From the NCBI RefSeq assembly GCF_056712565.1, contig NZ_JBWXXM010000005.1: 8,328 nt of DNA, one strand, 5' to 3'. Within the stretch, counting starts at the first letter, position 1. Every line of letters begins with the position of its first letter. Below are positions 1-8,328 of this stretch, piece after piece. Source of the DNA: a plasmid. The notes under the pieces were generated by a model. The model did no database searches, was not told the origin of the DNA, and saw only the letters and a list, made by a program, of their open reading frames with translations. The position numbers were made by a program, and so were the translations under genes.

Positions 1-486
1 ACCAAGAGGCACACCAACAATAAAACTAAACATTAATGCCACAATTTTTGCCACACCTACATCGACCGCACTTTTCTCCAGCGTGATAAACAAAGGTCGC
101 CAGTTACCAGTTTCTATTGCATTTTTAAAATCAGAACCAACATCATATAGAAAAGATACTCGACTGGTGATTTTAAGCGACTTTGATATCTTCGTTAAAT
201 TCTTAGATAACTCATCATAATTAACAGACTCTAACGCATTAAAAATAGCATCCCGATCAACCTTACTGAATTTCTTATCCAGTACATTCTTATACTTTTC
301 AAATGCTGCCAGAGCTTCATCAACACCTTGAATTTTCTTTCCTTTAGACTTTTCCGCTAAATCCTGAGCAATTTTTGCGTATTTTTCTCCATATTGTTCG
401 GTTATATATTGATAAAATCCAACCATAGTATCAACAGCATCTTTTATCTGGCTCTTTTCAAGAGCATCCTGAGCTTCTTTTAATTT
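1..486 (-). CDS. cka: Pore-forming (channel) domain segment of the colicin gene, open to the window start but out of frame with the upstream part; partial at window edge
   Basis: Reverse-complement translation in the frame whose codons occupy (3,2,1),(6,5,4)... is stop-free from 498 down to 1: [166 protein letters not shown]. This matches the colicin E1/Ia/K/5/10 channel domain as I recall it (not searched). That frame has a stop at 499..501, so it cannot join the upstream ORF without a 1-nt correction. Confidence 0.85.
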
Positions 487-1556
487 CTGCTCTGCCTCTT
501 AACCTCAGCGGCCTTACCATCCCTGAAACTAACAGCATTCTTAAGTTCATTTTCAACTGCGGAGTACTCAGCCTGCTTAGCTTCAAGCTGACGCTGTAGT
601 TTTTTCTGAACGTCACGCCATCCCGGAAATCCGGTGACCTTCACGTCAACACTCTTCTGAGCGTTTTCAAGCTCTCCTGCAACTCTGGAAACAGTAGCTT
701 GCTTACTCTGTACATCACTTTCAGCCTTCGCCAGTTCAGCTTTCGCCTCAGCTAAACGCTTCTCTGCTTCCGCCACCGCCTGTTTCTCTTCATTAAGAGT
801 TTCATGTTCAGCGACCTCTGCATTTTCACGAGCCTTTTCTTCAGCTTCCTTCTGTTTATTCACATCACCAATTTTACTTTGCAATGTATTTTTATAAGAA
901 TTAAGTTTGCTAATATCTGCATCAAGCTGATTTGATTTTTTTTGCAACTCATCAACATCCCTCTCAAGATCAGTGATACCATGATAAGAATGATGCTTGA
1001 ATACTTTTTTCATCTCCTCGATTTTCTTCTGTTTTTCACTAATCTGTGTAGCAATTTTATTCTTCTGCTTTTGTTTTTCATTAATTACATTACCCACCAC
1101 CTTCGAACTCTTATCCATATCACTGACCTGAGCATTCGTTGGTGCAGTATTAACTGAAGCAGTGTTATTGTTGTTATTTCCTGAGCTTTCTGCAAAAAGT
1201 GATGGCATATCACTAATTAAAGAATTAAGAACTCTGGAGACCCCTCCAAATGGATTATCAACCAGAGTTGAATTATCTTCTGTCATAACAATACCATTCA
1301 TCACCGGAAGGCCATCATTATTAATGACAACATCACCCCACGGAGTCAGATATGACTCACCGGTTTTCATCACAGTTGATGTAGAACCAGATGAATTTGA
1401 ATTTCCCTGACCACCATTATTACCATGCCCAGAGCCACCACCCCAGTGAACCCCACTATTACTATTATTATTTCCACCTTGCTGATTCAGATTCGCCCCT
1501 GTTCCCCCCATAGACTCACCAGCAGTTGGTCCATATCCACTTAGTTCTTTAGCCAT
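480..1556 (-). CDS. cka: Colicin, N-terminal translocation and central coiled-coil/receptor-binding part (358 codons), ending at a premature stop caused by a frameshift
   Basis: ORF track 480..1556 (-). Gly/Asn/Ser-rich N-terminus followed by [36 protein letters not shown]...[13 protein letters not shown], which closely resembles my recollection of the colicin A Tol-dependent translocation domain ([38 protein letters not shown]...RVLNSLV). A long K/E/A-rich coiled-coil follows. SD-like AGAGGA lies 7 nt upstream of the ATG (minus strand, + coords 1563..1568). Assignment to colicin K specifically is circumstantial: total length would be about 548 codons if the frameshift were repaired, and the immunity protein is 96 aa. 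Confidence 0.92.
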
Positions 1557-2901: not shown

Positions 2902-3274
2902 GGGATTTACCATAATCCCTTAATTGTACGCACCGCTGAAATGCGTTCAGCGCGATCACGGCTGCTGACAGGTAAAAATGGCAACAAACCACCCGAAAAG
3001 CTGCCGCGATCGCACCTGATAAATTTTAACCGTATGCATAGCTATTCAGCCATGTGAATAACGCTGGTTTTGCCTGCGTAAACCTCATGACACTGTTTTT
3101 TTTCCATCTTTTCAGTTGATGACATACGCAGACATCGCGGGATGAGGCTGAGGAATGAGCGCGATCTGGCAAAGAGGCAAAACACAGCAACAAAAACGAC
3201 ACGCCAGAATCGCGCCCGGATGCGTTTTTAACGCGTTCCGGTACCATCTGGCAACCTCCCGGAACAACTCACCG

Positions 3275-4873
3275 TCACATCCCTATTGACGGGCCACGCC
3301 ATACCCGTGCTTCCCGTTCCTGCTCTTCATGCCAGGACCGCGCACGCTCCCGTTCCAGGCGTGCCTGCCTTTCCTGTTCATCCCTTATCTGCTGTTCGTG
3401 ATAAATAACCGACTCAAGTGGTCCACCTGCCCGGCTAATCTCTGCACCTGCTGACTCAAGTCGTCGCACTGTTCCCTCAGTTGCCCGTTCTCCTGTCGTG
3501 TCAGCTCGAACATATGCTGCAAATCCGTGAAGGCGCTCTCCCAGTCTTTCAGCCGCTGCGTATAGTCCTGCTGCAATTGCTCTAAGGCGTTCAGTAAGTG
3601 CATTTCCAGCTCTGTCATACTCACTTACTCCCTGACCAGTCTTACTGCGTTCTTCTTCTCCACCGTCCAGTTGTTTTCCCCCTTCACCCCGGACGGCAAC
3701 ACCAGAAATTTCCCGTTCCTGCCCTCGTGATACGTCACACCCCATGTTTTTTCCCGGAGTTTCGCCAGCGTCTCTTCCTGGTCCCTGATAGCCAGGATGT
3801 TCGCCGCAATCCGGCTTTCCTGCCACTGAATCAGCCCCCATGACGCCAGAAAAATCCCGCCCGTGACGCAAAGCGCCGTCAGCGACGGGTACAGTATCCG
3901 CCCTTTGACCAGCTTCCAGAGCAGCTCTTCCTGCCGCCGGGCCAGTTCGTTCTCTGTGGCGCTGAACTGCGCGTTCACGGCACTGTTCAGCGTCTCCAGT
4001 TGTTCTTTCACCGCTGCTGTGTGTGCGCTGATAGCGTCTCTGATTTTCTGCCCGTTTAAGTTCAGTTCCCTGTCTACAGACGCTTCGAGCTTCCTGAACT
4101 CGCTGTTCAGCATGTTCTCTGTAGAGACGGCACGCTCTTTCAGTTTCTTCTCGAAGTCTGTCCCCATTTGTAAAAGATTGCTCATACAGCGCCCCTTTCA
4201 GCCTGAGATTACGCCCACCCTCCGGGTCGGCGATACTGATACTGCTCCTGGTTGTCCTCACAACCTCAAAACCTGCCGCTGTAAGCGCCTCAGTGACATC
4301 CTGACGCGTTTTTAGCGCTCCGGCATGGTAAAGAGCCTCCAGTCCCCTCGTAATCGCTTCTGCGGCCTCCTGTTTCGCTTTCGGCAGATTATTCGGGGTG
4401 ACAAGTGTCCGCCTGTTCTCCGGTGCGTTCGGGTCGTGCAGCCCGTAATGGTGATTCACCAGTGTCTGCCAGGCATTGATTCGCGGACGGTCCGCTCGGT
4501 CGTAATAGGGCTGGAGCCGTTTTCCGCTCGCCAGCTCCATATTCGGGATGACAAAATTCAGCTCAAGACGCCCCTTGTCCTGGTGCTCCACCCACAGGAT
4601 GCTGTACTGATTTTTTTCAAGACCGGGCATCAGTACCCGCTCAAAGCTCTCCATCACCCTTTCACGCTCTCCCGGTGGCAGGGTCTGCTCTGCAAAAGAC
4701 AGAACCCCCGAGGTGTATTTTTTCGCAAACGGCGTGGCATCGATGAGTTCCCGCACCTCTTCGGGAGCACCCCGCAGAACTCTCGCCCCTTCCCGGTTAC
4801 GCTCCCGGCCCAGCAGGTAATCAACCGGACCACTGCCACCGCCTTTTCCCCTGGCATGAAACTTAACTATCAT
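3275..4873 (-). CDS. mbeA: Mobilization relaxase MbeA (ColE1-type, MOB HEN family)
   Basis: ORF track 3275..4900 (-). From the internal Met it reads MIVKFHARGKGGGSGPVDYLLGRERNREGA...ILWVEHQDKGRLELNFVIPNMEL...QPYYDRADRPRINAWQ, matching ColE1 MbeA as I recall it. The ATG at 4873..4871 overlaps the mbeC stop in the usual coupled arrangement. The compositionally odd C-terminal half fits mbeB and mbeD being encoded in other frames. Confidence 0.92.
   Translation of the reverse strand: MIVKFHARGKGGGSGPVDYLLGRERNREGARVLRGAPEEVRELIDATPFAKKYTSGVLSFAEQTLPPGERERVMESFERVLMPGLEKNQYSILWVEHQDKGRLELNFVIPNMELASGKRLQPYYDRADRPRINAWQTLVNHHYGLHDPNAPENRRTLVTPNNLPKAKQEAAEAITRGLEALYHAGALKTRQDVTEALTAAGFEVVRTTRSSISIADPEGGRNLRLKGALYEQSFTNGDRLREETERACRLYREHAEQRVQEARSVCRQGTELKRAENQRRYQRTHSSGERTTGDAEQCRERAVQRHRERTGPAAGRAALEAGQRADTVPVADGALRHGRDFSGVMGADSVAGKPDCGEHPGYQGPGRDAGETPGKNMGCDVSRGQEREISGVAVRGEGGKQLDGGEEERSKTGQGVSEYDRAGNALTERLRAIAAGLYAAAERLGERLHGFAAYVRADTTGERATEGTVRRLESAGAEISRAGGPLESVIYHEQQIRDEQERQARLERERARSWHEEQEREARVWRGPSIGM
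3385..3618 (-). CDS. mbeD: Mobilization protein MbeD, nested within the 3' part of mbeA in another frame
   Basis: ORF track 3385..3624 (-), product M(S)MTELEMHLLNALEQLQQDYTQRLKDWESAFTDLQHMFELTRQENGQLREQCDDLSQQVQRLAGQVDHLSRLF. ATG at 3618 with GGGAG upstream; an alternative GTG at 3624 abuts the mbeB stop. Confidence 0.75.
   Translation of the reverse strand: MTELEMHLLNALEQLQQDYTQRLKDWESAFTDLQHMFELTRQENGQLREQCDDLSQQVQRLAGQVDHLSRLFITNSR
3625..4185 (-). CDS. mbeB: Mobilization protein MbeB, nested within mbeA in another frame
   Basis: ORF track 3625..4185 (-), product MSNLLQMGTDFEKKLKERAVSTENMLNSEFRKLEASVDREL... with a hydrophobic segment (LYPSLTALCVTGGIFLASWGLI). SD-like AAAGGGG upstream of the ATG. 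The stop abuts the mbeD start. Confidence 0.8.
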   Translation of the reverse strand: MSNLLQMGTDFEKKLKERAVSTENMLNSEFRKLEASVDRELNLNGQKIRDAISAHTAAVKEQLETLNSAVNAQFSATENELARRQEELLWKLVKGRILYPSLTALCVTGGIFLASWGLIQWQESRIAANILAIRDQEETLAKLREKTWGVTYHEGRNGKFLVLPSGVKGENNWTVEKKNAVRLVRE

Positions 4874-5210
4874 CCCGTTCTCCCTGTTTACGGACCTCAT
4901 CCCTCAGCTCACTCAGTTCACGTCCGATGGCCATCAGTGCAGCCACCACATGAACCCGGTCATGCCCCGACCACTGTCCGCTGTTTATCTTCCGGGCTAT
5001 CTGATTCAGGTTATTGCCGACCGAAGCGAACTGGCGCAACAGCGGCGGTGCCAGTGTCGGAAGACCTGACGTTTTCGATGGCGGTGCCCCCAGGCAGACC
5101 TTACGCATCCATGACGCAAGTTGTTTTCCCTCACAACGTGCCAGCAGCCGCGCATGTTCCTCATCCGTGACCCGTATCGTGAGCATCCTTTCGCGTTTCA
5201 CCGGTATCAT
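4863..5210 (-). CDS. mbeC: Mobilization accessory protein MbeC (relaxosome component)
   Basis: ORF track 4863..5363 (-). The conserved part MLTIRVTDEEHARLLARCEGKQLASWMRKVCLG...LAPPLLRQFASVGNNLNQIARKINSG...HVVAALMAIGRELSELR matches ColE1 MbeC/MobC as I recall it. Start chosen at ATG 5210 (GGAGG 7 nt upstream); ATG 5186 is an alternative. The first 52 codons of the track ORF are treated as spurious. Confidence 0.85.
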   Translation of the reverse strand: MIPVKRERMLTIRVTDEEHARLLARCEGKQLASWMRKVCLGAPPSKTSGLPTLAPPLLRQFASVGNNLNQIARKINSGQWSGHDRVHVVAALMAIGRELSELRDEVRKQGERDDS

Positions 5211-5253
5211 TAAAAACCTCCGACAGACTCCCCACACATGGAGAAACAGAACT

Positions 5254-5445
5254 GTGACTAAACAGGAAAAAACCGCCCTTAACATGGCCCGCTTCATCAG
5301 AAGCCAGACGCTGACCCTGCTGGAAAAACTGAATGAACTGGACGCCGACGACCAGGCTGACATCTGCGAAGCGCTTCACGACCACGCTGACGAGCTTTAC
5401 CGCAGCTGCCTCGCACGCTTCGGAGATGACGGTGAAAACCTCTGA
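5254..5445 (+). CDS. rop: Rop/Rom RNA one modulator protein (63 aa, GTG start)
   Basis: VTKQEKTALNMARFIRSQTLTLLEKLNELDADDQADICEALHDHADELYRSCLARFGDDGENL is near-identical to ColE1/pMB1 Rop as I recall it. GTG start at 5254 with GGAG about 10 nt upstream. The ORF-track entry 5014..5445 is an in-frame upstream extension with no support. Confidence 0.93.
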   Translation: MTKQEKTALNMARFIRSQTLTLLEKLNELDADDQADICEALHDHADELYRSCLARFGDDGENL

Positions 5446-5535
5446 CACATGCAGCTCCCGGAGACGGTCACAGCTGGCCTGTGAGCGGATGCCGGGAGCA
5501 GACAAGCCCGTCAGGGCGCGTCAGCGGGTTTTAGC

Positions 5536-5600
5536 GGGTGTCGGGGCGCAGCCATGACCCAGTCACGTAGCGATAGCGGAGTGTATACTGGCTTAATCAT
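5536..5600. other. bom / oriT region (basis of mobility) with relaxase nic region
   Basis: Sequence gggtgtcggggcgcagccatgacccagtcacgtagcgatagcggagtgtatactggcttaa corresponds to the pMB1/ColE1 bom region as I recall it, including the ...TATACTGGCTTAA... nic region. It sits between rop and the origin as in pBR322. Confidence 0.6.
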
Positions 5601-6253
5601 TTGGCATCAGTGAGGATTGTATGAAAAGTGCACCATGCCGGGTGTGAAATGCCGCACAGATGCGTAAGGAGAAAATGCTCGTCCAGGCGCTTTTCCGCTT
5701 CCTCGCTCACTGACTCGCTCCGCTCGGTCGTTCGGCTGCGGCGAGCGGTATCAGCTCACTCAAAGACGGTAATGCGGTTATCCACAGAATCAGGGGATAA
5801 CACCAAAAGAAACATGTGAGCAAAAAACAAGAACCCGGAAAAGGCCACGCAGCTGGCGTTTTTCCATAGGCTCCGCCCCCCTGACGAGCATCACAAAAAC
5901 CGACGCTCAAGTCAGAGGTGGCGAAACCCGACAGGACTTAAAGATACCAGGCGTTTCCCCCTGGTGGCTCCCTCGTGCGCTCTCCTGTTCCGACCCTGCC
6001 GCTTACCGGATACCTGTCCGCCTTTCTCCCTTTGGGAAGCGTGGCGCTTTCTCATAGCTCACGCTGTTGGTATCTCAGTTCGGTGTAGGTCGTTCGCTCC
6101 AAGCTGGGCTGTGTGCACGAACCCCCCGTTCAGCCCGACCGCTGCGCCTTATCCGGTAACTATCGTCTTGAGTCCAACCCGGTAAGACACGACTTAACGC
6201 CACTGGCAGCAGCCATTGGTAACTGGATAGTGGATTTAGATACGCAGAACTCT

Positions 6254-6281
6254 TGAAGTTGAAGCCTTATAGCGGCTACAC
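6254..6281 (+). promoter_or_regulatory. RNAI promoter (-35 TTGAAG, -10 TACACT)
   Basis: TTGAAG at 6254..6259, a 16-nt spacer, TACACT at 6276..6281, then the RNAI start about 6289. Same architecture as pMB1. Confidence 0.65.
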
Positions 6282-6288
6282 TGGAAGG

Positions 6289-6392
6289 ACAGCATTTGGT
6301 ATCTGTGCTCCACTAAAGCCAGTTACCCGGTTAAGCAGTCCCCAACTGACTTAACCTTCGACTAAACCGCCTCCCCAGGCGGTTTTTTCGTT
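6289..6392 (+). ncRNA. RNAI antisense copy-number control RNA
   Basis: Starts at ACAGCATTTGGTATCTG (pMB1 RNAI starts ACAGTATTTGGTATCTG) and ends at the hairpin plus T-run ...ccgcctccccaggcggttttttcgtt. Its promoter has -35 TTGAAG (6254..6259) and -10 TACACT (6276..6281) as in pMB1. Loop sequences differ from pMB1. Confidence 0.8.
6364..6392 (+). terminator. RNAI intrinsic terminator
   Basis: Stem aaaccgcct / aggcggttt with loop cccc, followed by a T-run (ttttttcgtt). Confidence 0.7.
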
Positions 6393-6402
6393 TACAGGCA
6401 GC

Positions 6403-6432
6403 AGATTACGCGCAGAAAAAAAGGATCTCAAG
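6403..6432 (-). promoter_or_regulatory. RNAII promoter (-35 TTGAGA, -10 TAATCT on minus strand)
   Basis: Minus-strand sequence cttcTTGAGAtcctttttttctgcgcgTAATCTgctgcctGTAAAC has a 17-nt spacer and matches the pMB1 RNAII promoter as I recall it. Confidence 0.7.
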
Positions 6433-6454
6433 AAGATCCTTTGATCTTTTCTAC

Positions 6455-6459
6455 TGAAC
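6455..6459. repeat. IS2 target-site duplication (TGAAC), right-end copy
   Basis: TGAAC immediately outside the IS2 end at 6460; an identical TGAAC lies at 7791..7795 outside the other end. IS2 is known to make 5-bp duplications. Confidence 0.85.
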
Positions 6460-6500
6460 TGGATTTGCCCCTATATTTCCAGACACCTGTTATCACTTAA
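6460..6500. repeat. IS2 terminal inverted repeat (IRR)
   Basis: Imperfect inverted repeat partner of 7749..7790; shared core CCAGACA...ATATCACTTA. Confidence 0.8.
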
Positions 6501-7376
6501 CCCATTACTGGCTTGCTGCCGTAGATATTCCCGTGGCGAGCGATAACCCAGTGCACTATGCGGATGCCATTCGTTATAATGCTCGAACGCCTCTGCAAGG
6601 TTCTTTGCTGCCGTTAACCCGTCTGGTTTGGGCATGACACTGATGTAGTCACGCTTTATCGTTTTCACGAAGCTCTCTGCTATGCCGTTACTCTCCGGAC
6701 TCCGCACCGCCGTGCTCTTCGGTTCAAGCCCCAACATCCGGGCAAACTGCCGTGTTTCATTAGCCCGGTAGCATGAACCATTATCCGTCAGCCACTCTAC
6801 TGGAGACGCCGGAAGCTCGTTGCCGAAGCGGCGTTCCACCGCTCCCAGCATGACGTCCTGTACTGTTTCACTGTTGAAGCCGCCCGTAGTGACCGCCCAG
6901 TGCAGTGCCTCACGGTCACAGCAGTCCAGCGCGAACGTGACTCGCAGTTTTTCTCCGTTATCACAGCGGAACTCGAACCCGTCAGAGCACCATCGCTGAT
7001 TACTTTCTTTCACAGCCACTCTGCCTGTATGTGCCCGTTTCGATGGCGGTACAGCAGGTTTTCGCTCAAGCAACAGCGCATTCTGGCGCATGATCCGGTA
7101 AACACGTTTGGCATTGATCGCAGGCATACCATCAAGTTCTGCCTGTCTGCGAAGCAGCGCCCATACCCGACGATAACCATACGTGGGCAGCTCTCCGATA
7201 ACATGGTGTATACGGAGAAGCACATCCGTATCATCAGTGTGACGACTGCGGCGGCCATCCATCCAGTCATCGGTTCGTCTGAGAATGACGTGCAACTGCG
7301 CACGCGACACCCGGAGACAACGGCTGACTAAGCTTACTCCCCATCCCCGGGCAATAAGGGCGCGTGCGCTATCCAC
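6471..7376 (-). CDS. insD: IS2 transposase OrfB (InsD), normally expressed as an OrfAB fusion by -1 frameshifting
   Basis: ORF track 6471..7376 (-) 301 aa, (M/V)[33 protein letters not shown]...[12 protein letters not shown]... with a DDE-type integrase core (...[37 protein letters not shown]...). The first codon is GTG and overlaps the end of insC. Confidence 0.95.
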
Positions 7377-7699
7377 TTTTTTGCCCGTCCATATTCAACG
7401 GCTTCTTTGAGGAGTTCATTTTCCATCGTTTTCTTGCCGAGCAGGCGCTGGAGTTCTTTAATCTGCTTCATGGCGGCAGCAAGTTCAGAGGCAGGAACAA
7501 CCTGTTCTCCGGCGGCGACAGCAGTAAGACTTCCTTCCTGGTATTGCTTACGCCAGAGAAATAACTGGCTGGCTGCTACACCATGTTGCCGGGCAACGAG
7601 GGAGACCGTCATCCCTGGTTCAAAGCTCTGCTGAACAATTGCGATCTTTTCCTGTGTGGTACGCCGTCTGCGTTTCTCCGGTCCTAAGACATCAATCAT
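7334..7699 (-). CDS. insC: IS2 OrfA (InsC), helix-turn-helix regulator / N-terminal part of the transposase
   Basis: From ATG at 7699: [58 protein letters not shown]...[26 protein letters not shown]. The 15 extra N-terminal codons in the track ORF 7334..7744 are rejected. Confidence 0.93.
7377..7383 (-). other. IS2 programmed -1 ribosomal frameshift heptamer (A AAA AAG) at the insC/insD overlap
   Basis: Minus-strand sequence ggcA AAA AAG tgg is in the OrfA zero frame. A -1 slip reads AAA AAA GTG GAT AGC = KKVDS..., continuing into InsD. This is a known IS3-family mechanism. Confidence 0.7.
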
Positions 7700-7748
7700 C
7701 TGCTCTCCAATGACTAGTCTAAAAACTAGTATTAAGACTATCACTTAA

Positions 7749-7790
7749 ATAAGTGATATTGGTTGTCTGGAGATTCAGGGGGCCAGTCTA
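7749..7790. repeat. IS2 terminal inverted repeat (IRL)
   Basis: Reverse complement from 7790 reads TAGACTGGCCCCCTGAATCTCCAGACAACCAATATCACTTA... The lysis-gene reading frame terminates inside this repeat at TGA 7775..7777. Confidence 0.8.
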
Positions 7791-7918
7791 TGAACCGCGA
7801 TCCCCGTCAGTTCAGAAGACGAAGATGGTGCAACGGTTCCTCCTTGTACATCACGAATATAGTTTGCTTGACATCCTGACAAGAATAATATTGTAATTAG
7901 AAAAATTATTATTTTCAT
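7775..7918 (-). CDS. ckl: Colicin lysis (bacteriocin release) lipoprotein, with its 3' end altered by the IS2 insertion (47 codons; ends ...GIAV-HRLAP)
   Basis: Not in the ORF track (short). Reverse complement of 7793..7918 translates [42 protein letters not shown], with signal peptide, lipobox L-S-G-C and the [14 protein letters not shown] motif typical of colicin lysis proteins. Reading continues across the TSD into the IS2 IRL (H R L A P, stop TGA at 7775..7777). The displaced native end (Q codon and TAG) lies at 6451..6456 on the other side of IS2. Confidence 0.8.
7791..7795. repeat. IS2 target-site duplication (TGAAC), left-end copy
   Basis: TGAAC directly abutting the IS2 end at 7790; identical to 6455..6459. 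Confidence 0.85.
7868..7897 (+). promoter_or_regulatory. Candidate immunity-gene promoter located inside the lysis-gene coding region
   Basis: TTGACA at 7868..7873, an 18-nt spacer, TGTAAT at 7892..7897, about 50 bp upstream of the immunity ATG at 7948. Confidence 0.4.
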
Positions 7919-7947
7919 ATTTCTTTCCAACAAAAGTAAAAATACTT

Positions 7948-8238
7948 ATGCATTTAAAATACTACCTACATAATTTACCTGAATCACTTATACCATGGAT
8001 TCTTATTTTAATATTTAACGACAATGATAACACTCCTTTGTTATTTATATTTATATCATCAATACATGTATTGCTATATCCATACTCTAAATTAACCATA
8101 TCTAGATATATCAAAGAAAATACAAAGTTAAAAAAAGAACCCTGGTACTTATGCAAGTTATCTGCATTGTTTTATTTATTAATGGCAATCCCAGTAGGAT
8201 TGCCAAGTTTCATATATTACACTCTAAAGAGAAATTAA
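7948..8238 (+). CDS. cki: Pore-forming colicin immunity protein (96 aa, integral inner-membrane protein)
   Basis: ORF track 7948..8238 (+). Very AT-rich and hydrophobic (…[33 protein letters not shown]…[26 protein letters not shown]), consistent with several membrane spans. It is convergent with the colicin gene and sits between colicin and lysis genes on the opposite strand, the canonical arrangement for pore-former immunity genes. Its stop (8236..8238) overlaps the colicin stop (8235..8237). Confidence 0.8.
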
Positions 8239-8328
8239 ATCCCTAACAACTCATTAAGTTTGCTCAACTCATCATCCCCTATGTAAGAAGAAACAATACC
8301 TGTGACAATTGCAATCCCCCAGAAACCA
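8235..8328 (-). CDS. cka: C-terminal tail of the colicin gene (last 29 codons plus stop), continuing from the window start across the circular junction
   Basis: Reverse complement of 8235..8327 translates [30 protein letters not shown]-stop, the end of the hydrophobic hairpin and C-terminus of a pore-forming colicin. The stop TAA is the reverse complement of 8235..8237. Window 8325..8328 (acca) equals window 1..4 (acca), and joining 8324 to 1 gives a continuous ...[15 protein letters not shown]... reading frame. Confidence 0.75.

Follow-up and report, generated by a model that had tools for sequence, protein, structure and literature searches.

The hairpin at 6420..6442 on the minus strand of the window (the whole stretch of DNA that was analysed, 8,328 nucleotides in length) is a known element, the inverted repeat that encloses the -35 box of the ColE1-type promoter for the replication primer, and it belongs to the plasmid backbone and not to the colicin operon. 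In the ColE1/pMB1/ColK-type lineage, this hairpin probably also acts as a Rho-independent terminator for polymerases arriving from upstream, a reading to which we give, judging from the sequence, a probability of roughly 60%. Termination would be at most an added role of the dyad, found in the ColE1/pMB1/ColK promoter type.

Identity of the plasmid and the IS2 insertion

By BLAST comparison with two colicin K plasmid records, the window consists of an entire colicin K plasmid, circularly permuted, and one extra segment of 1.3 kb. The 862 bases of 5600..6461, on the left side of the hairpin, are 100% identical to colicin K plasmids of 6988-6995 bp and 99.5% identical to pColK-K235 (NC_006881.1). 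In the uninterrupted plasmid NZ_CP018987.1, the gene order along the RNAII strand is cka, cki (on the opposite strand), the lysis gene and the replication region. The antisense RNA, RNAI, was recognized by Rfam on the plus strand at 6291..6391 (RF00106, 77.4 bits, E 2.3e-13), a match that includes the RNAI terminator hairpin at 6364..6385. Transcription of the replication primer, RNAII, is, therefore, from the minus strand.

An IS2 element of 1331 bp (6460..7790, minus strand) lies in the same orientation as the lysis gene, and its two ORFs contain transposase and integrase domains (HTH_Tnp_1 and rve). It is bordered by the target-site duplication GTTCA, with the right copy at 6455..6459 and the left copy at 7791..7795, and GTTCA occurs as a single copy in the uninterrupted plasmid (L001). 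IS2 entered two codons ahead of the old lysis stop, and the lysis gene (ckl, 7775..7918, minus strand; Pfam Lysis_col, 81.8 bits) now ends within the IS2 end, with a C-terminus of ...GIAVHRLAP* here against ...GIAVQ* in the uninterrupted form. The orphaned original stop, TAG, was located at 6451..6453 (minus strand) by mapping the annotated CDS of NZ_CP018987.1 onto the window, and 8 nt separate it from the 5' arm of the hairpin, in good agreement with the original prediction of about 10 nt. That the hairpin stands directly downstream of the lysis gene, as had also been proposed, is true of the uninterrupted ancestor but not of the present plasmid, in which IS2 intervenes and the lysis ORF ends inside it.

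A co-directional gene end precedes the hairpin in both arrangements, 8 nt past the ckl stop in the ancestor and 29 nt past the stop of IS2 orfB (6473..6471) here. The consensus terminator scan found no terminator-like site on the minus strand within IS2, so that the hairpin is the first such structure for polymerases exiting IS2, and the same scan found no other terminator-like site on the minus strand from the lysis gene to the RNAII promoter. The IS2 of pColK-K235 (L002 6118..6706) is 95.6% identical to the present one (6460..7790) and occupies a different insertion site, which indicates that the two plasmids gained IS2 independently. No copy of the IS2 junction of the window turned up in searches of PLSDB and of the complete E. 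coli genomes in RefSeq.

Several further observations were made on these regions. A perfect 9-bp hairpin (TATCACTTA-TT-TAAGTGATA, 7739..7758) lies just inside the lysis-facing end of IS2, immediately 5' of orfA. The IS2 target GTTCA (window 6455..6460) adjoins the position of the junction between the Tn3 end and pMB1 in pBR322-type vectors (...GACCCC followed by GTAGAAAAGATC, L010), and two independent transposon insertions have thus occurred at most 5 bp apart, between the lysis-gene end and the primer promoter. Compared with pColK-K235 and NZ_CP018987.1, the colicin K gene (480..1556, minus strand) lacks one nucleotide at about 498, where the plus strand has TT instead of TTT; as a result, its frame stops at 480, after 358 codons against 548, and the product would lose its C-terminal third (35%). 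This deletion could be a genuine inactivation or a homopolymer sequencing error. Moreover, a perfect 9-bp hairpin (TGGCAATCC-CAGTA-GGATTGCCA, 8183..8205) is situated about 31 nt past the cka stop, within the 3' end of cki, the immunity gene, which has the opposite orientation. Its plus-strand form was flagged as terminator-like, and it is a candidate for a proximal or bidirectional terminator in the interval between cka and the lysis gene.

Anatomy of the hairpin in the RNAII promoter

The minus strand across the hairpin region reads GTTCAGTAGAAAAGATCAAAGGATCTTCTTGAGATCCTTTTTTTCTGCGCGTAATCTG. A repeat search recovered a perfect inverted repeat at 6420..6442, whose 9-nt arms, AAAGGATCT (6442..6434) and AGATCCTTT (6428..6420), are 100% complementary and stand 5 nt apart, separated by TCTTG. 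The stem consists of 9 Watson-Crick pairs, and an extra U-G pair forms on RNA folding, giving 10 pairs and a CUU loop. The original prediction, which placed a terminator-like hairpin at 6414-6441, was correct within one base; the hairpin that it described is present, with a stem of 9 bp and a loop of 5 nt instead of 8 bp and 7 nt. Written with 8-nt arms, the 5' arm is AAAGGATC(T) at 6442..6435(6434) and the 3' arm is (A)GATCCTTT at (6428)6427..6420. A run of seven T's (6416..6422, minus strand), identified from the sequence and the terminator scan, lies in the upstream part of the 17-nt promoter spacer. The 3' arm ends with the first three of these T's, and the other four, together with CT, make up the tail; the T run that had been described is, therefore, real, but what directly follows the stem is four T's, then C and T, and not five T's.

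The -35 hexamer of the RNAII promoter, TTGAGA (6426..6431, minus strand), was recognized by identity to the pMB1-type promoter of L010, and the -10 hexamer, TAATCT (6403..6408, minus strand), by -10-anchored alignment and homology to pMB1. We take these to be the RNAII hexamers on the strength of established ColE1/pMB1 knowledge. The -35 hexamer spans the loop and reaches two bases into the 3' arm, and its placement at the loop, as originally described, is confirmed. Homology and the position of RNAI place the likely RNAII start at a G, 6395 on the minus strand, 7 nt past the -10 and just beyond the RNAI match. The view that the hairpin is embedded in the RNAII promoter is borne out, and the arrangement TTGAGA-17-TAATCT, identical to pMB1 and with RNAI encoded antisense immediately downstream, is that of a ColE1-type primer promoter.

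Two other readings were considered. The first two GATC sites (6435..6450, minus strand) allow an alternative small hairpin, AAGAUC-AAAG-GAUCUU, which rivals the main hairpin for the 5' arm. An attenuator working through this structure was rejected; the small hairpin shows up in a single equilibrium fold of the ancestral transcript but is minor in the ensemble, where the terminator hairpin prevails. The idea of an Frpo-type promoter of single-strand DNA was also rejected because the hairpin excludes the -10.

Folding energy and terminator scores

Calculation of the RNA folding energy, the check that had been proposed along with the hairpin, gave -10.1 to -10.7 kcal/mol, which is moderate. The 33-nt segment folds at -10.7 kcal/mol (z = -1.6), and 14 of 200 shuffles fold as well; the 51-nt segment, with the A tract upstream of the stem paired to the T run, reaches -18.2 kcal/mol (z = -3.7). 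When the RNA ends at the 3' arm, the pair probability is 0.82-0.95 for any upstream length, with or without IS2. The consensus scan marked the hairpin as terminator-like on both strands, and it found five terminator-like sites in 5500..8328 against 2.3 +/- 1.5 in shuffles. Perfect 9-nt short-loop hairpins are only three in the whole 8.3 kb. By itself, the hairpin hardly exceeds chance expectation, and it is its recurrence across the ColE1 family that makes it non-random.

Terminator scores of the d'Aubenton-Carafa type were computed with modern ViennaRNA energies, and on this scale the minus-strand hairpin received +23 (core stem, U7 tail) or +5 (10-pair stem), against +22/+12 for the RNAI terminator of the same plasmid and +4.5 for the Tn3 bla-distal hairpin with identical arms. 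The plus-strand version, which the scan flags as well, has the tail GAUCUUUUCU and yet scores negative, with -9 or -36, and all T-less lineages are also negative. The stem, with 9 Watson-Crick pairs plus U-G, falls within the range of intrinsic terminators (about 5-14 bp with a loop of 3-8 nt), and the U-rich tract is present as U7 if the stem is taken as the GGAUC core, and as U4-C-U behind the full stem. No mapped termination at this hairpin was found in the accessible literature. The stem, the loop, the U7 tail, the position past a stop codon and the comparable scores make it plausible that the hairpin ended the colicin-lysis transcript in the ancestor and that it now ends IS2 and read-through transcripts.

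Comparison of primer promoters across the family

Primer promoters were collected from one-genome-per-species contigs and metagenome contigs, which were scanned with an RNAII-internal anchor about 220 nt downstream of the hairpin, chosen at that distance to avoid selecting on the hairpin itself. Anchoring on the -10 then gave 138 distinct promoter regions of 63 nt in gapless register. About 90 of the 138, regardless of the upstream content, share a GATC-N7-GATC core whose second GATC is fused to the -35. The 41 nt around the -35 fold with a mean z of -1.74 relative to their own shuffles, and 47% lie below -2, as against a mean z of -0.16 and 4% below -2 in control windows 100 nt upstream.

Outside the GATC cores, the flanks vary among lineages and are complementary within each, extending the stems up to 13 bp. 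Examples are AAAAAA/TTTTTT, GGAG/CTCC, CATGAA/TTCATG and CGAGGAA/TTCCTCG, as well as GGAGGATC/GATCCTCC, CATGAAGGATC/GATCCTTCATG and CGAGGAAGGATC/GATCCTTCCTCG. When one representative per RNAII cluster was taken and the 3' flanks were swapped between lineages, the permuted sets gave a summed arm extension of 139.5 +/- 5.8, below the 165 of the real pairings (P<0.0002). Formal pair counting on an 80-sequence gapless alignment (A1) gave a percentage paired of 67.4 vs 64.3 and a covariation score of 0.183 vs 0.154, both above nearly all shuffles, and in the same alignment double-change pairs (8 vs 8.5) and further pair types (39 vs 37.1) were not significant. As the double-change measures, which are least affected by relatedness, gave no signal, the case rests on the flank permutation instead, and covariation of the dyad arms is supported but not overwhelming. 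A site for a sequence-specific protein was rejected as the explanation, since the arm sequences beyond GGATC differ among lineages while remaining complementary.

The T run has a narrower distribution. The ColE1/pMB1/ColK promoter type has at least five T's in a row after GATCC, as do various scattered RNAII clusters outside it; when RNAII clusters are cut at 20% distance, the run is present in all members of 9 of the 31, absent from 12 and mixed in the remaining 10. Very strong dyads with no T run on either strand are found in L108, L150 and L008, and the first two of these have stems of 12-13 bp, energies of -22.3 and -17.4 kcal/mol, respectively, and negative terminator scores. In L102/L188, L099/L124, L140, L089/L185 and L125, a lysis-gene stop abuts or overlaps the 5' arm, and the T run is short or absent; L102, L099 and L140 are among those that lack it. 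Adjacency to a lysis gene is common, yet a T run is not required for it. In addition, a crude test revealed no association between the T run and a co-directional upstream open frame, both classes standing at 52% against a null of 42%.

The dyad is thus general whatever lies upstream, whereas the T run is lineage-specific, which indicates that the dyad belongs to the replicon and its primer promoter. Strong dyads that lack T's, together with lysis-gene lineages that lack them, further imply that termination cannot be the general reason for the dyad. As a separate observation, a lipobox-containing lysis-type ORF in the metagenome loci L102 and L188 appears to cross the 5' arm and to stop at the TGA within the -35, with the apparent reading CCC ATA GGA TCT TCT TGA and no T run after it; if this reading is true, the gene end overlaps the primer promoter there.

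Dam sites and possible alternative roles of the dyad

Three Dam sites are clustered at 6424..6446 (GATC at 6424-6427, 6435-6438 and 6443-6446), with spacings of 11 and 8 bp, and the first two lie in the hairpin arms. The cluster has the form of a Dam/SeqA-controlled one, with at least two GATC copies within one to three helical turns at a point of replication control. GATC is otherwise scarce in the plasmid, with 18 copies against 30.7 +/- 5.1 expected, and it is absent from 3167..6423, the 3.2 kb that form the rest of the replication region, so that the three copies in the primer promoter are the sole GATC sites near the origin. According to a 2025 preprint, ColE1-like plasmids share a conserved pair of GATC sites close to the origin, and its experimental loss alters replication dynamics, point mutations abolishing the post-replication eclipse (bioRxiv 10.1101/2025.02.19.639193). 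The GATC sites of the ColE1 primer promoter were the subject of Patnaik, Merlin & Polisky 1990, as cited in that work.

These sites raise the possibility that the dyad is a promoter and methylation module only, with an incidental terminator look and little termination, which we consider unlikely, though it is the main rival of the terminator reading. Two GATC sites 11 bp apart, one of them fused to the -35 (TTGAGATC), with A/T tracts on both sides, would set the strength of the primer promoter and permit SeqA/Dam control after replication. The clustering of GATC, its scarcity elsewhere, the recurrence of the core in about 90 of the 138 distinct promoters, the altered replication of plasmids whose GATC pair was ablated and the many lineages without a T run all accord with this. 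However, two GATC sites do not account for the complementarity of the flanks within lineages that the permutation detected, and the present lineage has a full U7 tail and a score equal to that of a bona fide terminator. The known function of GATC overlaps the hairpin and explains the two GATC cores, not the complementary flanks.

A further and rather doubtful alternative is that ColE1-type primer promoters throughout the family share the dyad as a structural element, which compensatory change would maintain even in the absence of a U tract, with a main function other than termination. Such an element might form a hairpin or cruciform layer in the control of the primer promoter, or a 3' protective cap for the upstream gene, and some lineages, including that of the present plasmid, might secondarily have made the dyad into a terminator by lengthening the T run. 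Either specific form of a conserved structure without a terminating role seems improbable to us. In one form, a 3' hairpin would keep exonucleases off the upstream mRNA once this has been processed or terminated by Rho; in the other, a DNA cruciform at the -35 would make primer-promoter activity dependent on supercoiling. A stem of 9 bp with a loop of 5 nt is short for cruciform extrusion in vivo. Palindromes can also be perfected by template-switch mutation without selection, and the pair counts least affected by relatedness, such as the double changes, were not significant. Speaking for a conserved structure are the family-wide folding signal, which the control windows lack, and the strong T-less hairpins of L108 and L150, and for the T2 hairpin of ColE7 a role in blocking 3' exonucleases has been proposed (PMC2896534).

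It is similarly improbable that the hairpin is a bidirectional terminator, which on the plus strand would also backstop read-through from RNAI and spare the lysis gene antisense transcription. The scan does flag a plus-strand version (6420..6442, tail GATCTTTTCT), the hairpin lies 29 nt beyond the RNAI 3' end, and in many lineages an A run ahead of the 5' arm is a T run on the RNAI strand; nevertheless, the plus-strand tail is interrupted, its score is negative, and the own terminator of RNAI is strong. Finally, a chance palindrome without a function of its own, compatible with the 33-nt z of only -1.6 and with terminator-like sites that are not rare in shuffles, is in practice refuted by conservation, as the dyad stands at the same place relative to the -35 in most of the 138 promoters and in dozens of divergent RNAII clusters.

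Proposed role and implications

In the reading that we prefer, that of a Rho-independent terminator added to the dyad in the ColE1/pMB1/ColK-type lineage, a polymerase arriving from upstream on the RNAII strand would produce a hairpin of 9-10 bp followed by a U run in its RNA, and intrinsic termination would ensue. In the uninterrupted ancestor, the SOS-induced cka-ckl transcript would most likely end at this hairpin, its distal ('T2') terminator. The hairpin would also act as an insulator by keeping heavy colicin transcription off the primer promoter, so that no 5'-extended RNAII would be made. In the present plasmid, where IS2 lies between the lysis ORF and the hairpin, the hairpin would instead stop IS2 and read-through transcripts. 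As well, the GATC sites in the same 23 bp (two of the three) would, in line with the literature, tie the primer promoter to Dam methylation after replication. The anatomy, the conservation and the terminator-like scores are shown; for this plasmid, we infer termination, insulation and methylation control.

The element itself is already known as the classical ColE1/pMB1 primer-promoter dyad and is ordinary backbone biology, present in every pBR322- or pUC-type vector. Its interest is practical in that the hairpin marks a likely stop for transcription of the colicin operon, IS2 or a cloned insert ahead of the replication primer. Moreover, mutations can be placed in the 5' arm that leave the promoter hexamers intact, and termination and promoter function are, therefore, separable. 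The combination of a general dyad with a lineage-specific T run is a small lead, which the older literature may well contain, and offers a modest handle on how ColE1-like replicons shield their primer promoters.

Comparison with known systems

A close counterpart is the primer-promoter dyad of ColE1/pMB1 (pBR322, pUC), which also has three GATC sites. From the lysis stop through the -10, the pMB1-type sequence of L010 is identical to that of the window (GTAGAAAAGATCAAAGGATCTTCTTGAGATCCTTTTTTTCTGCGCGTAATCTG), which agrees with the original description of the hairpin as backbone-derived and shared with pMB1; the ColE1-type L116 is one base off, with GATT for GATC. The 45-nt stretch of promoter plus hairpin is thus identical between ColK and pMB1, and the RNAII bodies of pMB1/ColE1 are 61-64% identical to that of the window. 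Such near identity over 45 nt despite diverged RNAII points to strong constraint on the module or to its exchange. Relative to ColE1/pMB1, the element is unchanged and its context differs, with IS2 18 nt upstream and an RNAII body of the ColK type.

Colicin operons (ColA caa-cal, ColE2/E7) are described as having a T2 terminator after the lysis gene (PMC4353708, PMC2896534). The present hairpin resembles T2 in its place, since in the ancestor it closes an SOS-induced operon and begins 8 nt past the stop of the lysis gene, ckl. This position is found in uninterrupted relatives but not in the window, where the lysis ORF ends at 7775 and the hairpin follows 1.3 kb further on, beyond IS2. Unlike T2, moreover, the candidate terminator overlaps the promoter of the replication primer.

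The Tn3 bla-distal hairpin of pBR322/pUC has 9-nt arms identical to those at 6420..6442, with A's before and T's after them, and is located 100 nt upstream of the RNAII dyad in the vector locus L010. It differs in its loop (AGGTGA), its shorter T5 run, its score of +4.5 against +23 and its lack of any promoter part; it is presumably the bla terminator of pBR322/pUC vectors. This Tn3 hairpin (AAAAGGATCT-AGGTGA-AGATCCTTTT, L010) was also observed to precede ...TAATCT, in resemblance to the ColE1 promoter. Lastly, the RNAI terminator of the same plasmid shares the architecture of an intrinsic terminator and a comparable score (+22 vs +23) with the present hairpin; it differs in being G+C-rich, in its folding energy of -12.5 kcal/mol (z -5.5), and in lying on the opposite strand, within an RNA recognized by Rfam.
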